Of a stretch of 64,000 nucleotides of DNA, positions 2,334 to 58,303 are shown piece by piece; position 1 is the first letter of the stretch, and every line of letters begins with the position of its first letter. Below the pieces are notes generated by a model. The model searched no databases. It was not told the DNA's origin and saw only the letters and a list, made by a program, of their open reading frames with translations. Location of the stretch: positions 17,505 to 81,504 of the forward strand of contig JACPMF010000009.1 in NCBI GenBank assembly GCA_016186145.1, written 5' to 3'. This DNA is from Candidatus Sungiibacteriota bacterium (GTDB lineage: Bacteria > Patescibacteriota > Minisyncoccia > Sungbacterales > SURF-37). The translations under genes and the position numbers were made by a program.

Positions 2334-3803
2334 TCAACTCTTCCGGCCCTGCTCAAACGTATATGCCGCTGACAGGATAGTTGTCTCATCAAACCACTTC
2401 CCGATAAACTGCAACCCGACCGGAAGGTTCTTTTCTTCGCGCTCAACCGTTCCGCAGGGAAGGGATAGCGCCGGAATACCGGCCAAATTTACCGCAACCG
2501 TATAGATATCAGCCAGATACATCTGCAACGGGTTTGCCGTTCGCTCCCCAAGGCGAAACGCAGGCGTCGGCGACGTCGGCCCGACAATAATATCAACCGT
2601 TCGAAAAGCGCTCTTAAAGTCCTCTTGGATCAGGCGTCTCACCTGCTGGGCTTTGTTGTAATAAGCGTCATAATAACCCGCAGAAAGCGCATAGGTGCCG
2701 AGCATGATTCTTCGTTTAACTTCTGCGCTAAAACCGTCTGCTCGTGTTTTTGCGTAAACTTCATATAAATTTTCCGCGTCTGTCCGCGATTGAGAGTGTC
2801 CGCATCTGTCCGCGATTGAGAATCCGTATCTTATGCCGTCGAACCTCGCGAGATTAGCAGAAACCTCTGCAGGCATAACCAAATAATAAACCGGGAGAGC
2901 AAGACGCGCATGCGGTAAACTTATTTCCTGAACTTCCGCGCCGAGGCGAGTTAACTCCGCAATGGCCTGATGTATTCGCGCCCCCACATCACCCTCCAAG
3001 CCCTCACCAAAATACTCTTTCGGAACGCCCACTTTTAACCCACGGAGCGACCCTCTTCTGTCTAATACAAACGGTTTCGTCTCGACTGTTGTCGCATCAT
3101 AACGGTCGCGCCCCCGAATTGCTTCGAAAAGAAGCGAAGCATCCTCAACGGTCTTAGTGATCGGGCCAATCTGGTCCAAAGAAGATGCCATAGCAATGAG
3201 GCCGTGCCGCGATACTCCCCCATAGGTTGGCTTTAAGCCGACCACGCCGCAAAAAGAAGCCGGCTGACGGATTGAACCACCCGTATCTGACCCGAGCGCT
3301 GCCAGGGCAAGATCCGCGGCAACCGCAGCCGCGGACCCTCCGGAAGACCCCCCCGGGACTCGTCCCAAATCATACGGGTTTCTGGTCGGCCCAAAAGCTG
3401 AATTCTCGGTAGACGATCCCATTGCAAATTCGTCCAAATTTGTTTTTCCCAAAAATACCGCTCCCGCATGTTTTAATTTTTCTATCACCGTAGCGCTGTA
3501 TGAAGCGATATATGGTTCAAGAATTTTTGACCCGGCCGTTGTCTTTGTTCCGCGAATAAGTATGTTGTCTTTTACCGCAATCGGCATGCCCATCACCGTG
3601 GTATCGATTTCTTCGGCGCCGATTTTTTCATCGATGCCATCCGCCTGTCGCAGCGCCTCTTCTTCAAAAACGTCAAGATAAGCACGAATTTCTTCATTCT
3701 TACCTTTGATATTTTTAAGATAATGCGAAACAACCTCTCGACAGGAGAATTTTTTTGCTTTTAAGCCAGAAACAATTTTTGTGATAGTAAGATTTTCCAC
3801 CAA
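2334..3803 (-). CDS. gatA: Asp-tRNA(Asn)/Glu-tRNA(Gln) amidotransferase subunit A
   Basis: Amidase signature GGSSGGSAAAVAA...GSDTGGSIRQPA and full-length collinearity with GatA. Contains a 17-bp direct repeat (2779-2795 / 2805-2821) that encodes a ~9-aa insertion. Confidence 0.92.
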   Translation of the reverse strand: MVENLTITKIVSGLKAKKFSCREVVSHYLKNIKGKNEEIRAYLDVFEEEALRQADGIDEKIGAEEIDTTVMGMPIAVKDNILIRGTKTTAGSKILEPYIASYSATVIEKLKHAGAVFLGKTNLDEFAMGSSTENSAFGPTRNPYDLGRVPGGSSGGSAAAVAADLALAALGSDTGGSIRQPASFCGVVGLKPTYGGVSRHGLIAMASSLDQIGPITKTVEDASLLFEAIRGRDRYDATTVETKPFVLDRRGSLRGLKVGVPKEYFGEGLEGDVGARIHQAIAELTRLGAEVQEISLPHARLALPVYYLVMPAEVSANLARFDGIRYGFSIADRCGHSQSRTDAENLYEVYAKTRADGFSAEVKRRIMLGTYALSAGYYDAYYNKAQQVRRLIQEDFKSAFRTVDIIVGPTSPTPAFRLGERTANPLQMYLADIYTVAVNLAGIPALSLPCGTVEREEKNLPVGLQFIGKWFDETTILSAAYTFEQGRKS

Positions 3804-19364: not shown

Positions 19365-19483
19365 AATCCCGTTAGAGATAGGAAATGCCGCAGGCATTTC
19401 CGTTGATTATGATTGGTATAATGGCTTTCAGGCACATAATGCTGTTGGGTGGCCAAATAAAAAGTTTAAATCTCTAACGGGAT
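19365..19483. mobile_element. MITE-like hairpin element, copy D (ATAAAtcccgttagagata ... atctctaacgggATAAAa)
   Basis: Inverted termini with the 5-bp flanking direct repeat ATAAA; the interior holds the sub-hairpin ggaaatgccgcaggcatttcc. Lies between pilM and comF. Confidence 0.55.
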
Positions 19484-23281: not shown

Positions 23282-23411
23282 TAACTAATCCTCCTTATAT
23301 CGTAAATTTCTTGCAAAGAGCTGTCACTTTCTTACTCGTACTATTTTTACTATTTCCTGTCAACGTTTCGTAAATCAACCCTGCAATTTCTTTCATCGCC
23401 TTTTCTTTCAT
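23282..23411. repeat. diverged copy of glyA 3'-terminal module, copy 2
   Basis: Collinear with 25362-25481 at roughly 75% identity (by-eye estimate). Confidence 0.6.
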
Positions 23412-23493
23412 CCCGTTACAAAATTTACATAAGTCATTTACGAAATATAACCATTTTTAGTCTAAAAAAACAAAATTCAATCAAAGATCTTGT
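23411..23493. mobile_element. hairpin element H (tcccgttacaaaatttaca ... tgtaaattttgtaacggga)
   Basis: 19-bp perfect inverted repeat sharing the TCCCGTTA core; a half-copy lies at 21048-21074. Confidence 0.45.
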
Positions 23494-23561
23494 AAATTTT
23501 GTAACGGGATTCGTGCCTAACTGTTGTGGCAACGAACGGCGTCACAATATAAAGCCGGAGG

Positions 23562-30116: not shown

Positions 30117-30240
30117 TTCATCCCGTTAGAAGCAGATCGCGATCAAACAGTTGTCTTCTGCGTAGATTTTATTCATTTCTACTATTGTAAGGTATTAGCC
30201 TTTTAAAATTCGGTAGCGATCGCGGCTTCTAACGGGATTC
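30117..30240. mobile_element. MITE-like hairpin element, copy C (ttcatcccgttagaagc ... gcttctaacgggattc)
   Basis: Termini and subterminal gatcgcgatc match copy F in inverse orientation; TGAA/ATGAA duplication at the insertion point, which lies inside another repeat (gggtgctgaa^ttttatag). Confidence 0.55.
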
Positions 30241-40945: not shown

Positions 40946-41863
40946 TTATGTTTTTAAATTTCTGGAGTGGTATTTTTTGTGAATTTCGCGAAGCGCTTTG
41001 TCAGTAACATGCGTGTATATCTGCGTAGTGGTGATTTGCGCGTGCCCCAGAAGCTGCTGGACCGACCGCAAATCCGCTCCGTTTCGTAAAAGGTCGGTCG
41101 CAAACGCATGACGCAAACCGTGCGGCGTAATTTTTTTTGAAATGCCGGCCTGCAGAGCACATTTTTTAACAAGACGTTGAATAGAGCGCGGTGTCAAACG
41201 AAGCTCGGTACTGTTTTTTATTGAAGTTCCTTTTTTAAAATGAACAAACAACGCTTCATCAACATCACCGCGCTTATCGAGGTATTTTTGAAGCGCATCC
41301 CGCGCGCGCTCCGACAAAAACACGATGCGGATTTTATCGCCCTTGCCGCGCACTGAAAATTCATCGCGCTTCAAATTAATCGAGTCGCGACTTAGTTGGG
41401 CGAGTTCGGAAACGCGCAGGCCGGTCGAAAAAAAAAGTTCAAGAAGCGCGCGATCGCGAAGAGCAGTAAGCGTGTCCCCCTTCGGAGCGCCAAGCAATCG
41501 TTCGAGTTCGTCATGTTCGATTACTTCCAATTCACGGCTAGGTGCTTTCCCCAATTCAACTTTTTCCGGCGTTAAACTTTTGATATCGCGCTTGGCAAGA
41601 TACTTCAAAAAACTCCGCAGTGCTATCAAATGATAAAGCTGCGTCTGTTTTTTAAGCGGCTCACCATCGGCTCCACTAATGCGGTTTAGTTTGATGCGAT
41701 AGCTCCGAACCGCTTCTGCCGTAATATCTTGCGGTTTTTCAATGCCGGCAAGCTTTGAGAATCGGCGCAGATAACGGTCATAATTTTCAATGGTTTTCGG
41801 CGAACGATTCTTTTCTATTTCCAAATATTCTAAAAATTGTCTTCGCAATTCTTTTAAGGACAT
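40946..41863 (-). CDS. tyrosine recombinase XerC/XerD family
   Basis: C-terminal HGLRHAFATDLLRNGADLRSVQQLLGH...TQIYTHV (R..H..R..Y catalytic set), N-terminal SAM-like domain. Confidence 0.85.
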   Translation of the reverse strand: MSLKELRRQFLEYLEIEKNRSPKTIENYDRYLRRFSKLAGIEKPQDITAEAVRSYRIKLNRISGADGEPLKKQTQLYHLIALRSFLKYLAKRDIKSLTPEKVELGKAPSRELEVIEHDELERLLGAPKGDTLTALRDRALLELFFSTGLRVSELAQLSRDSINLKRDEFSVRGKGDKIRIVFLSERARDALQKYLDKRGDVDEALFVHFKKGTSIKNSTELRLTPRSIQRLVKKCALQAGISKKITPHGLRHAFATDLLRNGADLRSVQQLLGHAQITTTQIYTHVTDKALREIHKKYHSRNLKT

Positions 41864-49350: not shown

Positions 49351-50109
49351 ATGGCACTCGAATTTGAACTCAAAAAACTTGGATTTTCCGACAAGGAAGC
49401 GAAAGTCTACCTTGCCCTCCTGGAACTCGGCGCCTCACCGGTACAGCCGGTTTCGGAGAAAGCCGGGGTAAATCGCGCAACAACCTATGTGGTACTGGAA
49501 ACCCTCCGAAGCCGCGGGGCCGCCAGTACTGTCGAGAAAGAAGGCAAAACAATGTTTATCGCGGAAAGCCCGCGCACTCTTTTGCGGCTCTTCCGCGCGC
49601 AGGAGCAGGAATTAAAAGAGAAGCAAGAGGCATTCAAAAAAGTTCTCCCGGAACTTGAAGCGGTCTTCAACATCGCGACCGGAAGGCCAAAAGTAAAATT
49701 CTTTGAGGGGCCCGAGGGAGTCCGGGCAGTCCGAGAAGACATTCTGCAATCGGGAGCAAAAATCCTTTATGACATCTATTCCCTTGAATACGTCAACCAG
49801 ATTATGTCTCTTTTTTCCGAAGAGGAAGTAAATGAATATGTAAAAAGACAACAGGAAGCCGGAATGACCATAAAATCCCTCTATACCAGCGAGACCGGCC
49901 CATCTACCGAATTCAAACTCACCGGCGAGCGCAAATTCTTGCCAAAGGAAAAATTTCCTATTGCTGGCGACATTTTAATCTACGAAGATCGGGTCTCCCT
50001 TACCACGCTTCGCGGCAGAATCATGAGTGTAATCATAGAGAGTAAAGAGATCGCCGACACCATGCGGCTTGTGTTTGATCTTGCTTGGCTTGGCGCTGAC
50101 CATATTTAA
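49351..50109 (+). CDS. TrmB-family transcriptional regulator
   Basis: N-terminal wHTH (EAKVYLALLELGASPVQPVSEKAGVNRATTYVVLETL..RG), TrmB-like C-terminal domain. TATAAT 12 nt before the ATG (near-leaderless). Confidence 0.65.
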   Translation: MALEFELKKLGFSDKEAKVYLALLELGASPVQPVSEKAGVNRATTYVVLETLRSRGAASTVEKEGKTMFIAESPRTLLRLFRAQEQELKEKQEAFKKVLPELEAVFNIATGRPKVKFFEGPEGVRAVREDILQSGAKILYDIYSLEYVNQIMSLFSEEEVNEYVKRQQEAGMTIKSLYTSETGPSTEFKLTGERKFLPKEKFPIAGDILIYEDRVSLTTLRGRIMSVIIESKEIADTMRLVFDLAWLGADHI

Positions 50110-50581
50110 ACTACCAAAGCACTACTAAATAAGTTCGGCCCGGAGCGCAGATTTTCGCGCCCCGGGCCATTTTGCGTTTCTACGAACATATCAGAACCGC
50201 AGACCGCTTCGATCAGAGATTTTTCCAAAAGAACGAACCCAATCTCGAGCATCAAAATCAGCCCTTACTTGGATTCGCCCATCGGACACCTCCTTTCGCT
50301 CTTGATACGACATGCCTAGGGTTCGTAGGTGTAGGGCCGGTCCGCCAAGGTGCAGCGGACCAAGCCCCATCCCTTAGGCATCGCCCACGATCGCCACCCC
50401 CTCTCAAGCCAGAATTATCTCCATTATAGCTGATTGACAACTTCTTGTCAATGTATCTTAACAAAACATCTTTGCTTTGCAGTCACTCGTATCACATACT
50501 GCGCTGACATTTCCTTTTGGCAAAAAATTGGCTTAAAATATCAGTTTTTTGAGCCATGTCCATAGAATTTGTTAAAAGGGC

Positions 50582-50610
50582 TTGACAAAGTTTTTAGATA
50601 GGTATATAAT
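50582..50610 (+). promoter_or_regulatory. consensus sigma70-type promoter (TTGACA - 17 bp - TATAAT)
   Basis: Exact match to both hexamers with a 17-bp spacer: cTTGACAaagtttttagataggtaTATAATtac. Confidence 0.6.
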
Positions 50611-50617
50611 TACTTTA

Positions 50618-51330
50618 TAACAGTACCTTGCCAGGAAATTATTCCTGCCAAGTGGCGTGCGGCTAAAGGATTACAAGCCGAGCCCTTGCGGACATTATGG
50701 AACCCGGGAATAAACAACATTATGTATCCGCCACAGGCGGATCAGTCCCGATCCGTTCCAAGAGTGCCGATTTTAGTCCTTTACTCGCATCATTCTTGGC
50801 AGGAATAGCTTATCACCCGCTCTCTTGAGCCATGGGAACACTAGCCCCGCACCAATTTTGCCTTATCAAACCGTAGGTTTTGTAAGTAAAAAGGAGGGGC
50901 AAAACACTTGAGCGAAGTGCGTGTGCCGGAACCCCGCAGTAGAGTAAGGCTCACTACGGGGCAAGTAGGCACGGATTCTGAAATAAGGGCGACCTGCCCC
51001 GTAGGGAACGCGAAGCGTTATCCTTCGGGGAGCACTTCGCCACAGAGTGGTAATGCAAAATTGGTGCTGGGGTATTTTCAAAATAGGCCCGATTTTAATA
51101 AAGGGCAGGCCCTTCGAGGACCAATGGCTCAAAAGAACGGGTGATTAGTTCAACTTTTAAAGAAAGGGTAGAGGTAACCCCCGATGAAGTTGCGGATAAT
51201 TCGCGGCAAGGAGAAACGGATTCCGATCCGTCTTCCGTTGCCGCCGGTTGGACGCCCGCATAGCACGCCGAAGGGCGCGCGTGGGTATAATCGTTCTGAA
51301 ACGCGGCGCCTGGAACGCGCCGCAAAGGAG
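50618..51330 (+). ncRNA. candidate structured non-coding RNA / very long leader downstream of the consensus promoter
   Basis: No convincing ORF for ~700 nt. Many local and long-range complementarities (e.g. cctgccaag/cttggcagg 140 nt apart; atccgccacaggcggat). Class not recognised. Confidence 0.3.
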
Positions 51331-51337
51331 GGACGTG

Positions 51338-51631
51338 ATGAGTGATCAGAAGGTGGTGATCGAGGTGTTCGCATGTGGCGCCTGTCATGCCGTGAAAGGC
51401 ATGGCGAGCACGATGTTCAACACCACGATCGACGGCCGGCGGCTGATCTTGTGCCGCCGCGACGCGGCGTCGGCGAGGACGAATGGCCTGAAGGTCTTTC
51501 CCCTCTCGGCCACGCTCGCGCGCGACGCGCGACAGGCCGCGGCTCGCGAGGCCTCAAAGGACTTCTGGGCCGACTTCGGTCGCCGAAAGACCGAAAAGGC
51601 CCTGCGGCGACCGGCGATCCGGATCACGTAG
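51338..51631 (+). CDS. hypothetical protein (very GC-rich)
   Basis: AAAGGAGGG RBS 5 nt before the ATG; 97 aa; composition is foreign to the rest of the window. Confidence 0.35.
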   Translation: MSDQKVVIEVFACGACHAVKGMASTMFNTTIDGRRLILCRRDAASARTNGLKVFPLSATLARDARQAAAREASKDFWADFGRRKTEKALRRPAIRIT

Positions 51632-52117
51632 CGCCCGCTCTCGGTTAACGCGGATATCGCGGGCAGGAAACCCGCGGTGGGACGCGAAGCGTCTCCGAGA
51701 GCAAGAGTCCATCCCGCAAACCAGCGGGATTCCCGAGGCGGCCCTGGGTGCGACGTCTCCCAGGCAAACCGAATGCTCTGCCGCCACAGAGCGTACCCGG
51801 GAAACCATTTGCCGCGAATTGGGGCGCGGCATTGGGAAATTGGAGCCGCTGGCGAGGCGGGTAAGCGCGAGGGCATTTCGCCCCGCGACCGAGACCAATG
51901 AAGGATTCTCATCTCCCCTTCACGCAAGAGGATGGCGTGGGCAACGCGTGCCGCCCGCCGCCCCAACCGGGGCCTGCGGAGCGAGTACGGCCAAAGGGGC
52001 GAGCCAGCGGAAAGCCGCGGCCGCCCCATCCTCCGTTCTTCCGAGTTTCTTATTCCAATGTTCTTGAGAACATTGGAATAAAGATTCGGAAGAGCGAAAG
52101 CTCAAAGTTCTTTTGAC

Positions 52118-52243
52118 ATGAATCCCGTTAGAGATATGAAACTTAAATCTTTTTATGCGAAACTAACAGCAATTGTTAGTTCATAAGTTGCCAGATAGTC
52201 AAGATGTGGAAACCTTAGGTTTCCTATCTCTAACGGGATGAAG
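52118..52243. mobile_element. MITE-like hairpin element, copy E (ATGAAtcccgttagagata ... tatctctaacgggATGAAg)
   Basis: Perfect 14-bp termini, ATGAA direct repeat; the right-hand ATGAA supplies the ATG of the ORF at 52238. Confidence 0.55.
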
Positions 52244-52477
52244 AGGGCAAAACCCGTCTTCAGGTTCGTGGGTGAACCACGGCCGGGCGTCCGGGCCCAG
52301 CTCGAGATCGCGCTCGCGGTCCAGTCGTTCTTCTTCTCGGTCACCGAGAAGGGGCTGGATCGAGCGGCAATCGAGCAGGAGCTCGGAAAGGAGCTCTCCG
52401 ACCTCAAGGCGCAGATGCGCGTCCTCGAGGTGGAAGTCTCCGGCCCTGCGTGGTTTGCCGAACTCTTCCGCTCGTAA
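52238..52477 (+). CDS. hypothetical small protein (GC-rich)
   Basis: 79 aa; start codon within the target duplication of element E. Confidence 0.3.
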   Translation: MKRAKPVFRFVGEPRPGVRAQLEIALAVQSFFFSVTEKGLDRAAIEQELGKELSDLKAQMRVLEVEVSGPAWFAELFRS

Positions 52478-53048
52478 GGGGAAGAGGCGGACCTAGTCGG
52501 TGCCTGCGGTGTCCGACGATAAATCCCGCGAAATCGGGATCCGCCTCTGGCGGAAAACAGGCTAGGAGAGCCATAGAAACGACAAAACTCTCCGCTGGTC
52601 GAGTGAATTCTGATTCTCGACCGCTCTCCAAAGTTTTCAAATCATTCTGAAAGTTTTGGTGGGACAAAACTAGAGGCATAAACCCATACAAAGGAGGAAT
52701 CCATGGAATGTTTGATTTGCGGGGACAAACCCCTGCAGCTGCCCTTGCCCAGACTGCGGCCAGCCGTATCGTGAATGCGGCGACTGCGGGCAAGCGTATT
52801 GCGGTTACCCCGACTACGGGTGCAACTGCTAATAAACGGAGGGGGGACATTCCTTTCCGTGAAGCGGACGGCGAGAATATCCGTCCGCTGTTCTTCCGAG
52901 TCCATCTCATCTATTCTCAAATTCTTAAGAATTTGAGAATGAAGATTGGTTCAGAAGAGCAACAGACACTCTTCCAACAAAACGGTTGAAAAACCTCAAA
53001 AGTATAGTATAATAATGACGTCTTTGCGTGAGACGACTTATTAAAATT

Positions 53049-53099
53049 CCCCCCGTAGCTTAACGGATAAAGCAGCGCTCTTCCCCGCCTGCCAAAGTT
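53049..53099 (+). other. tRNA-like 5' half (acceptor + D-arm) upstream of tRNA-Arg
   Basis: ccccccg-ta-gctt-aacggata-aagc resembles the tRNA 5' end. Its 7 nt are perfectly complementary to cgggggg at 53219-53225. Confidence 0.35.
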
Positions 53100-53171
53100 G
53101 CCCCCGTAGTTCAATGGACAGAACAGGGGCGTTCTAAGCCCTTGATGTGGGTTCGATTCCTACCGGGGGCG
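53100..53171 (+). tRNA. tRNA-Arg (TCT)
   Basis: Manual fold: acceptor gcccccg/cgggggc, D-stem gttc/gaac, anticodon loop gtTCTaa, T-arm gtggg-ttcgatt-cctac. Confidence 0.8.
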
Positions 53172-53226
53172 ATGGCAACGGCGCGCAGGTAAGGCGTTGA
53201 TGGGGGTTCGATTCCCTCCGGGGGGA
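53172..53226 (+). other. tRNA-like 3' half (anticodon-stem 3' strand, variable region, T-arm, acceptor 3' strand)
   Basis: ...aggcg-ttgat-ggggg-ttcgatt-ccctc-cgggggg-a; pairs with the 5' half at 53049-53099. Confidence 0.35.
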
Positions 53227-53292
53227 TTTTGATCTAATTAAAATACCGTTGTGTGAATTTTTAAAAACAAAACTAGTGCTTAGTTGCACTAG

Positions 53293-53622
53293 TTAAACCG
53301 CTCCGGGCCAAGGGCCAAGTGGGGTATGATCAATTTTTTCACATTCGGTTCCCGTATTTTGATATAGACAGTAACTGTCCACTACCTCATAAGGGTAAAA
53401 TTTTCTATTGCCATTATCATTAACGACTGAGATTCCATATAGACTTCCCCAACCAGAATAACTTCCGCTTAACTCTTCACCGTTTCTTAAAGCAACTGAT
53501 ATATGTGTAGAGGGAAGGCCAGTAACGAAACCGATCATTATGCCACCAAATACTGCAAGTATTAAGGCGATAGTGCAATATAAACCGGCGTTACTGTTGA
53601 TGAACTTACGGAGCTTGGGCAT
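53293..53622 (-). CDS. membrane-anchored hypothetical protein
   Basis: N-terminal TM helix (LYCTIALILAVFGGIMIGFV), 109 aa. Confidence 0.35.
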   Translation of the reverse strand: MPKLRKFINSNAGLYCTIALILAVFGGIMIGFVTGLPSTHISVALRNGEELSGSYSGWGSLYGISVVNDNGNRKFYPYEVVDSYCLYQNTGTECEKIDHTPLGPWPGAV

Positions 53623-58112: not shown

Positions 58113-58303
58113 CGCGAGTAAATGAAACTATAAAATTGAGCACCCCGTTAGATGCGGAAATATAGTAGTTTTCTGCGCCTGGCAAAGTTATACGCATTAT
58201 ACTTTTTGTAAATTTTTTCATGGTTTGTTCCGCTATCTAACGGGGTAAAGGTTTGGCAACTAAATTTTCTACGCCTGCGGCTTGAAAATTTAGGCCAAGC
58301 CCT
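58113..58303. repeat. composite 3'-UTR repeat, copy B (conserved hairpin + palindromic core ccccgttagatgcgg...ccgctatctaacgggg), inserted between ftsE and ftsX
   Basis: Flanks match copy A (16650-16835) at ~85% identity; the core palindrome differs but is self-complementary. Confidence 0.55.

Follow-up and report, generated by a model that had tools for sequence, protein, structure and literature searches.

How does a tRNA gene come to lie inside another tRNA gene, and which of the two would then serve the cell? The question is raised by a 178-nt locus (positions 53049-53226) in a 64-kb stretch of contig JACPMF010000009.1 from a Candidatus Sungiibacteriota bacterium, a stretch which we refer to as the window and whose gene content is typical of the candidate phyla radiation (CPR), with type IV pilus genes, LigA, ThyA, DHFR, LeuRS and L10/L12. 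At this locus a complete tRNA-Arg(TCT) gene is bracketed by the two halves of a second tRNA-Arg(TCT) gene, and the same nested layout occurs in at least 14 loci besides the window. The explanation that we regard as probable, if only by a modest measure, is that a short palindrome-bounded cassette carrying a tRNA was inserted into a resident cognate gene, leaving the inner gene at work and the outer one as a young relic.

A tRNA-Arg gene between the halves of another

The inner gene had been read as a canonical tRNA-Arg(TCT) in an initial annotation made from the sequence, and this is borne out by ARAGORN, which calls it tRNA-Arg(tct), by Rfam (RF00005, 63.9 bits against a gathering score of 29) and by an nhmmer profile built from the 132 tRNA-Arg genes collected in this analysis, of which it covers positions 1-71 with 68.8 bits. 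It is 72 nt long including the discriminator G, and CCA is not encoded. The tRNA-like elements which that annotation placed on either side were all found as well: the acceptor strands CCCCCCG (53049-55) and CGGGGGG (53219-25) pair at 7/7 positions, the D arm (53058-73) reads GCTT-AACGGATA-AAGC, the T arm (53202-18) reads GGGGG-TTCGATT-CCCTC and A73 stands at 53226. In order, the 5' part comprises CCCCCCG, T8 A9, the D arm, A26, the anticodon-stem strand GCGCT and C32 T33 T34 C35, and the 3' part comprises T36 A37 A38, GGCGT, a variable region TGAT, the T arm, CGGGGGG and A73. The resemblance of these halves to tRNA-Arg, also claimed at the outset, is beyond chance by the profile E-values of both (Table 1).

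The 5' half ends ...GCGCUCUUC and the 3' half starts UAAGGCGU..., and as their two profile matches abut without overlap or gap, the outer sequence is one tRNA-Arg gene cut at 53083|53190, between anticodon nucleotides 35 and 36 (loop CTTC|TAA). With the break set there a clean cloverleaf with the loop CTTCTAA forms, which the initial annotation had failed to obtain; the bridging pairings that it proposed, GCGCT/GGCGC and CGCCT/AGGCG, do exist in the sequence, but only as alternative registers of GC-rich repeats. The anticodon stem supported by homology joins GCGCT (53075-79) to GGCGT (53193-97) with a G.T pair at both ends, and the inner tRNA likewise has G27.T43 in its anticodon stem. After removal in silico of the intervening 106 nt (53084-53189) the outer gene is called tRNA-Arg(tct) by ARAGORN with its cloverleaf intact, and its score against the Arg profile, 61.9 bits, falls within the range of genuine tRNA-Arg genes (median 65.3, 25th percentile 59.1). 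All 21 of its 21 stem pairs are formed (18 Watson-Crick and three G.U, with no mismatch), and the canonical T8, G18 G19, T33 and TTC are present.

The junction was taken from the nhmmer coordinates, brute-force splicing scored by ARAGORN having given a tRNA call for 682/1102 junction combinations, too many to be informative. As encoded, the outer gene is reported neither by Rfam nor by ARAGORN (also with -i), and intron options with lowered thresholds brought spurious low-score calls only. A permissive Rfam search of 52800-53500 and 50000-53100 returned, besides the tRNA, only weak sub-gathering matches, mostly to microRNA-like hairpins. The locus as a whole is predicted by RNAfold to fold at -82.9 kcal/mol (z=-2.76), and the minimum free energy structure contains all four outer helices (acceptor, D, anticodon and T), pairs the insert flanks with each other, and includes the inner acceptor and anticodon arms.

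The insert is therefore made up of a 16-nt flank, the 72-nt tRNA and an 18-nt flank. Counted from the ends inward, the flanks pair at 11/16 positions, and their outermost pair, C53084-G53189, coincides with the insert boundaries. A flank helix, such as is seen in the intervening sequences (of 23S rRNA, for example) that RNase III excises without religation, is present in the fold of the locus, and excision of that kind could conceivably occur here.

Table 1. Features of the nested locus and its relatives (window coordinates; for insertions, the site within the outer tRNA)
Feature	Position	Strand	Remarks
Sigma-70-like promoter, TTGAAA, 16-nt spacer, TATAAT	52986-53013	+	11/12 matches
Outer tRNA-Arg(TCT), 5' part	53049-53083	+	Profile positions 2-35, match 53050-53083, E=4.3e-5
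Insert 5' flank, 16 nt, CCCGCCTGCCAAAGTT, GC-rich	53084-53099	+	Pairs with 3' flank
Inner canonical tRNA-Arg(TCT)	53100-53171	+	ARAGORN, Rfam RF00005, Arg profile
Insert 3' flank, 18 nt, ATGGCAACGGCGCGCAGG	53172-53189	+	Pairs with 5' flank
Outer tRNA-Arg(TCT), 3' part	53190-53226	+	Profile positions 36-70, match 53190-53224, E=3.8e-4; direct repeat D1
Palindromic elements TCCCGTTAGA...TCTAACGGGA	518-673, 19367-19482, 23411-23509, 30121-30237, 52123-52238, 58143-58245		
Insertion, window	Anticodon, 35/36		
Insertion, L060	D loop, two nt upstream of D-stem 3' strand		
Insertion, L147, L181, L189	D loop, 21/22		
Insertion, L051	D stem, 23/24		
Insertion, L008, L210	37/38		
Insertion, L036, L095 (Arg)	T loop		

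Nested tRNA genes at other loci

Further cases were sought among loci fetched from other assemblies, to which the L-numbers refer. A metagenome scan for tRNA-Arg 5' ends gave at least 120 loci, mostly ordinary tRNA-Arg genes, with nested anatomy in at least five (L008, L036, L051, L060 and L095), and a genome scan, in which the matches listed were mostly chance ones in GC-rich genomes, gave at least four real cassettes, all of them nested (L147, L181, L189 and L210). The search patterns were centred on tRNA-Arg, and the nested loci counted here are a minimum in which other tRNA types are under-represented. L147 and L189 are from Patescibacteria, the latter being orthologous to L181, and L210 is from Candidatus Magasanikiibacteriota; among the matches listed, every genome-derived nested locus named at phylum level belongs to the CPR/Patescibacteria. 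A scan of viral contigs for the repeat returned chance matches in GC-rich phages only and no cassette. The nested tRNAs are of the Arg (TCT in the window; CCT and CCG), Ala, Val, Cys, Leu and Pro types, and the insertions lie in D, anticodon or T loops, with one in a D stem.

Two features unite these loci, the first being the anticodon. Among the matches listed, the outer anticodon equals the inner one in every nested locus where the former can be read, which gives TCT/TCT in the window, CCT/CCT in L051, L060, L147, L181, L189, L210, L036 and L095, CCG/CCG in L008 and, for Cys, GCA/GCA in L095; the outer gene around a nested Ala in L060 retains the G3.U70 alanine identity pair. The second is a pair of inverted repeats around the inner gene. 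Seven loci have flanks of a GC type (L051, L060, L008, L147, L181, L189 and L210) and share one layout, namely CCTGCCCGCC(ATGGCC), a 3- or 4-nt linker, the tRNA-Arg, 2-3 nt and a 3' repeat ending GCAGGCG(G/C)G. In 6/7 of them the 3' repeat is GGCGATGGCAGGCGGG with at most one change, L008 having a shorter 5' repeat and GATAGCAGCAGGCGGG. Across L051, L060, L147, L181, L189 and L210 the 16-mers CCTGCCCGCCATGGCC and GGCGATGGCAGGCGGG are identical or differ once, and they pair with each other at 14/16 positions (13 Watson-Crick pairs and one G.T) with conserved C/A and G/G mismatches, while the cargo tRNAs of these six loci differ by up to about 30%. In a second group the inverted repeats are perfect, richer in AT, 9-15 nt long and peculiar to their locus, and most of them start CCCC or CCCG; this group comprises L036 and L095 (Arg), L095 (Cys, Leu), L121 (Pro) and L362, L364 and L365 (Val). 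The nested Ala of L060 is bounded by a 7-nt repeat, CCCGTAC/GTGCGGG. As in miniature inverted-repeat transposable elements (MITEs), terminal inverted repeats are conserved here among copies in different places and genomes.

The flanks in the window can be related to the GC type. The 5' flank has CC.GCC.GCC in common with the CCTGCCCGCC... repeat of other nested loci, and the 3' flank has GATGGCA..GGCG..GG in common with GGCGATGGCAGGCGGG; they are a diverged version of these repeats, and the window copy would be a diverged member of a CPR cassette family. An idea that they are the consensus repeats reversed was dropped, since the arm CCTGCCCGCCTGCC of a hairpin at 543-572 holds both versions.

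In the window the inner and outer genes are 75% identical, whereas the uninterrupted tRNA-Arg(TCT) genes of L089 and L023 have 87% identity to the outer and 88% to the inner gene, respectively, so that the inner gene does not appear to be simply a copy of its outer, and the suggestion of a duplication scar in the initial annotation is not supported. The inner genes of L060, L147 and L181 have 90-94% mutual identity, against 79-82% to their own outers in L060 and L147, and in L060, L147 and L210 the outers have A7-T66 where the inners have G7-C66. Pooled over nine pairs, the inner stems contain 167 Watson-Crick, 13 G.U and nine mismatched positions and the outer stems 151, 22 and 16, respectively (p=0.034, Watson-Crick versus rest); the excess of G.U in the outers is about equal to that of mismatches, as unselected transitions would produce. 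In the orthologous pair L181 and L189 the 72 nt of the inner gene show 0 differences, and repeats and linkers are identical, while three of 51 nt differ in the outer 3' part, with the loss of an acceptor pair through one of these changes. The outers of L008, L036, L095, L121 and the L060 Ala case have lost arms or show mismatches, unrestorable loops or extra tRNA-less hairpins, and the state of outer copies thus ranges from intact, in the window, to badly decayed.

One locus is found in two allelic states. L362 and L363, contigs from different assemblies, are identical over more than 600 nt of flank, but L363 lacks 96 nt holding a tRNA-Val and the inner parts of the repeats, of which it keeps CCCC|GGGG in the outer anticodon loop, a residue resembling an excision footprint or a hairpin deletion. 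The cassette in L362 carries tRNA-Val(GAC) and lies at about 3230-3440 on the minus strand.

Several other arrangements were seen at these loci. L095 (1760-2110 and 3560-4060) has three nested tRNAs (Arg, Cys and Leu) on one 7.5-kb CPR contig, and its outer genes also hold several perfect tRNA-less hairpins; the variable region of the outer tRNA-Arg, for instance, has three of them. At 3982-4090 of L210 there is a tandem duplication of a segment that runs from the 3' end of a tRNA through the 3' repeat into the first part of the outer 3' half, and at about 7610-7700 of L060 (minus strand) a solitary tRNA 3' end, with GGCGATGGCAGG after it, is found downstream of the nested gene; the two together suggest frequent rearrangement at cassette repeats. 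Apart from the nested cassettes stand L043, L050 and L110, where tRNA-Arg 5' parts are cut off at or just past the anticodon loop (followed in L043 by a recombinase-like open reading frame, ORF), and L030, with a 191-nt tandem duplication of the upstream region and first 26 nt of a tRNA-Arg(CCT), all of which look like ordinary attachment-site (att) or duplication remnants.

Short palindromes are also found in the window away from the tRNA. Six palindromic elements of 99-156 nt have the ends TCCCGTTAGA...TCTAACGGGA (Table 1), an end motif with 15 matches in the window against 3.25 expected and with no shuffle reaching 15. The elements form long hairpins and have unrelated interiors, and direct repeats of 4 nt (TGAA, TAAA, TTCA) flank most of them. 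All six are in spacers, in five cases no more than about 30 nt from a start codon, and no tRNA remnants were found in these six cargo-less elements. Their end motif is that of the repeats around the nested Val of L362 and the nested Pro of L121. The hairpin at 543-572, CCTGCCTGCC-GGTA-GGCAGGCGGGCAGG, is a tRNA-less GC hairpin within the 518-673 element with repeats of the cassette-flank type, and such hairpins also occur in the decayed outer tRNAs of L008 (in the T loop) and L121. The genome therefore seems to be colonised by short palindromes, some relatives of which carry tRNAs.

A smaller hairpin, TCCGCC-NNN-GGCGGA, was also observed at 50727-50741 and 52540-52554 of the window and in L004, L008, L022, L033, L036, L051, L060, L181, L189 and L210, loci of the kind that carries nested tRNAs, and none of about 350 other fetched loci has it; its place in L181 and L189 is the D loop of the outer tRNA.

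Origin of the nested pair

On the explanation that we favour, a 106-nt cassette would have landed as DNA between nucleotides 35 and 36 of a resident tRNA-Arg(TCT) gene and would have destroyed it, the insertion being tolerated because the cassette supplies a working copy of the same isoacceptor. The promoter (Table 1), the sole plus-strand site within 52850-53400, precedes the outer 5' half by about 36 nt, and the inner tRNA would therefore be transcribed through it, in a single precursor. Folding predictions have the flanks pair into a stalk, which would allow the inner tRNA to fold independently; RNase P and 3'-end processing enzymes could then free it, and the outer halves would become merely leader and trailer. 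Because the outer gene in the window is still perfect, this insertion would be a young one.

A number of observations weigh against such an insertion. No target-site duplication was found, the profile coordinates of the outer halves abutting both in the window (2-35/36-70) and at other loci (1-23/24-73, 2-21/22-74 and 2-37/38-74). Among the roughly 50 ORFs of the window there is no transposase, reverse transcriptase or other mobility gene, the sole candidate being an Xer-like recombinase 11 kb from the tRNA locus, and no autonomous partner encoding a transposase or recombinase was seen in the window or the fetched loci, although a systematic search was not made. Among the matches listed, all cassettes sit in a cognate tRNA gene and none in ordinary spacer, which untargeted transposition followed by selection explains poorly, small as the sample is. 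The inner genes of L210 and L181 are 89-90% identical to their own outers, a likeness that requires gene conversion or some other origin. The window outer gene itself has no defects, so that its loss of function is argued from other loci. Finally, conservation is stronger in the repeats than in the tRNAs they enclose, which fits sequence-specific recognition and equally a role in RNA processing.

The last two points lead to the best of the alternatives, which we nevertheless think unlikely, that the insert is an intron and that one gene yields two functional tRNA-Arg(UCU) molecules. The steps required would be excision of the inner tRNA by RNase P and RNase Z while the flank helix holds the halves together, much as in archaeal split tRNAs, trimming by an endonuclease, and joining by an RNA ligase. 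Much of the anatomy agrees with this: the insertion is exact and a perfect cloverleaf results from splicing, the outermost pair of the flank helix stands at the exon boundaries, target duplication is absent, the repeats are extremely conserved, all insertion points except that of L051 (D stem, 23/24) are in loops, the window outer is intact in its 21/21 pairs and canonical nucleotides, and compensated acceptor pairs are retained in several other outers. The comparison between loci speaks otherwise, and it is the decay of outer copies elsewhere that disfavours an intron: stems, loops and arms have been lost and anticodon loops are beyond restoration in the outers of L008, L036, L095 (Cys and Leu), L121, L060 (Ala) and L362, and outer stems are enriched about equally in G.U pairs and mismatches, as they would be without selection. 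An archaeal-type bulge-helix-bulge, in which two 3-nt bulges with the splice sites flank a 4-bp helix of exon with intron nucleotides, was rejected, as the helix is formed wholly within the insert by its two flanks, staggered 3-nt bulges are absent on inspection, and exon ends vary between loci while the repeats are constant. No splicing endonuclease or RNA ligase was found among the approximately 50 ORFs of the window, protein-dependent tRNA splicing is, to our knowledge, not known in bacteria, and the same-anticodon rule would be left unexplained. The initial annotation was accordingly right about the structure, a gene interrupted by a complete tRNA (with the outer gene now identified as tRNA-Arg(TCT) and the insert measured at 106 rather than about 95 nt), but such a structure is no proof of an intron with a spliced outer product. 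There is a small chance that the embedded tRNA acts as the splicing device of a bacterial tRNA intron, which would mean protein-dependent splicing or a natural split tRNA in Bacteria. The repeats could also be the recognition site of an enzyme which moves the cassette specifically into cognate tRNA genes.

Less likely again is a local rearrangement without any mobile element, in which the nested copy arose from a resident gene or a tandem paralogue, for example by fold-back or template-switch repair at the inverted repeats of the tRNA itself, and the copies later diverged. It would account for inner and outer genes being paralogous and always having the anticodon in common, for the inners of L210, L181 and L036, which are 87-90% identical to their own outers and share lineage-specific oddities with them, and for AT-rich inverted repeats that are specific to their locus. 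It is opposed by the window pair, only 75% identical and each member closer to tRNAs of other organisms, by the A7-T66 outers and G7-C66 inners of L060, L147 and L210, and by identical 16-nt repeats at different insertion points in different CPR lineages; moreover, simple duplication does not produce the order of 5' half, whole gene and 3' half.

The att site offers a third alternative, in which the halves are a remnant of an integrative element, perhaps the one that deposited a GC-rich block upstream, or a recombination scar between tandem tRNA genes; we consider this very improbable. The block (50110-53000) is gene-poor and lies 150 nt upstream, integrases that target tRNA genes are said to cross over in the anticodon and T loops (as Williams reportedly described in 2002), and truncated tRNA-Arg 5' parts do exist in L043, L050 and L110. 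Yet identical direct repeats of a tRNA part, as such an element would leave, are absent: the halves are 75-86% identical to the inner copy (86% for the 3' part), and they sum to exactly one gene as complementary parts, unlike the duplicated 3' part of an att site. The insert is only 106 nt long, no integrase gene adjoins it, the tRNA promoter has the block on its upstream side, the flanks within 53084-53189 match neither the ends of the block nor those of an integrase-bearing element, and the nested anatomy recurs in L147, L181 and L210 without such a block. The att-site remnant which the initial annotation had entertained is accordingly not supported. Least credible of all is chance resemblance or an assembly chimera, for although standard tRNA finders miss the outer gene and an independent Logan contig of the same organism stops at 53191, both halves have significant profile E-values and abut exactly, the inner-outer repeats are too short to fool an assembler, the same architecture with different sequences occurs in independent NCBI, JGI and ENA assemblies, and the Logan contigs of this region are all 2-3 kb long, so that the break is uninformative and was also rejected as a hint of polymorphism.

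The surroundings of the locus have features of their own. The GC-rich stretch (51150-52030 and 52240-52900) reaches 62% GC against about 46% for the genome and sits between a TrmB-like gene (49351-50109) and the tRNA promoter; in L210 a TrmB-like gene ends 59 nt upstream of the nested tRNA-Arg, and the 2.9-kb block of the window may therefore be an insertion. Pfam gave no match for its small ORFs at 51338-51631, which is preceded by a good ribosome-binding site, and 52238-52477. In the region 50582-51160 (plus strand) a perfect sigma-70 promoter (50582-50610; TTGACA, 17 nt, TATAAT) precedes about 540 nt in which long-range pairings are deeply nested, with a fold of -222.8 kcal/mol (z=-7.9; 0/100 shuffles fold as well); free of ORFs and of Rfam matches, this stretch is a candidate for a large structured RNA. 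A second promoter, with 12/12 matches, points in the opposite direction (50451-50423, minus strand). Long, nearly perfect hairpins at 52030-52100 and 52880-52975 have the 5' arm ..GTTCTTCCGAGT in common (direct repeat D3) and could represent terminators or a further palindromic element; in L033, about 100 nt ahead of the tRNA-Arg(TCT), 30 nt match the first of them. The Xer-like tyrosine recombinase (40946-41863, minus strand) has a Phage_integrase and a SAM-like N-terminal domain, and homologues with 53-59% identity lie about 0.1-1 kb from tRNA-Arg genes in L082, L106, L027 and L079. When all fetched loci were searched by tblastn with the proteins of the window, no syntenic relative that could show an orthologous empty site was found; for the patatin gene next to the locus the nearest homologue is 47% identical, and the contigs with its homologues are non-syntenic yet hold another nested case (the L362 group).

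Comparison with known systems

If the locus does hold a cassette inserted into a cognate gene, CPR bacteria would carry tiny selfish or semi-selfish cassettes that are tolerated in an essential, single-copy tRNA gene by virtue of the replacement copy they bring, a strategy unlike that of self-splicing introns, inteins or integrative elements that rebuild only the tRNA 3' end, and such cassettes would be a route of horizontal tRNA gene replacement in reduced genomes. Their near-invariant 16-nt repeats predict a sequence-specific enzyme, either a recombinase or one of RNA processing. Should the outer genes still be matured, Bacteria would instead have their first split-tRNA system or their first tRNA intron that is not self-splicing, with a bearing on the old question of how disrupted tRNA genes originated. 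For annotation, the consequence is that outer genes are silently missed by standard tRNA finders and that their halves can be mistaken for spacer or att sites. Full-text literature searches returned no description of a tRNA nested in a tRNA, nor of palindromic elements carrying tRNAs.

Among disrupted tRNA genes the closest parallels are archaeal, where bulge-helix-bulge introns occur at non-canonical positions and transpose between tRNAs in Thermoproteales (PMC10714607), and where the same source, citing Fujishima 2009 and 2010, mentions split and tri-split tRNAs in Nanoarchaeum and Caldivirga. The break likewise falls at variable positions that include the D, anticodon and T regions, GC-rich complementary sequences beside it can hold the halves together, and the behaviour is like that of a mobile element. 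The cassettes differ in having a bacterial host, in lacking a bulge-helix-bulge between exon and insert, in carrying a whole tRNA of the same anticodon, in the decay of their outers at other loci, and in the window having no splicing endonuclease in its 64 kb.

Bacterial group I introns are known in the anticodon loops of cyanobacterial tRNA-Leu and tRNA-fMet, alpha-proteobacterial tRNA-Arg(CCU) and Azoarcus tRNA-Ile, and what they share with the locus is a break within the anticodon loop of a bacterial tRNA gene, in one case likewise of tRNA-Arg. This class was rejected for the insert, 72 of whose 106 nt are tRNA, which has no group I core (P3-P9, at least about 200 nt) and which gives no Rfam intron match at E up to 10.

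Genomic islands and prophages with tyrosine integrases target tRNA genes and restore them, crossing over in the anticodon loop, the T loop or the 3' end. Here too the insertion would be tolerated through a replacement tRNA sequence, and anticodon and T loops are favoured sites; unlike these elements, a cassette of 106 nt has no integrase, brings a complete tRNA rather than a 3' part, leaves both old halves in place without direct repeats, and uses D-loop sites too.

Short palindromic insertions, finally, include MITEs, repetitive extragenic palindromic (REP) sequences and REPINs (REP doublets forming hairpins), Rickettsia palindromic elements and mitochondrial GC clusters, as well as the rRNA intervening sequences that are removed by RNase III. 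With these the cassettes share a length of about 100 nt, terminal inverted repeats that form hairpins, structured-RNA genes as targets, and many copies with conserved ends. They depart from them in carrying a tRNA which appears functional, in being found, among the matches listed, in a cognate tRNA gene only, and in lacking a target duplication, whereas the cargo-less elements of the window mostly have 4-nt direct repeats. On this comparison a palindromic insertion with an essential gene as its cargo is a variation on known kinds, with a modest chance of being categorically new.

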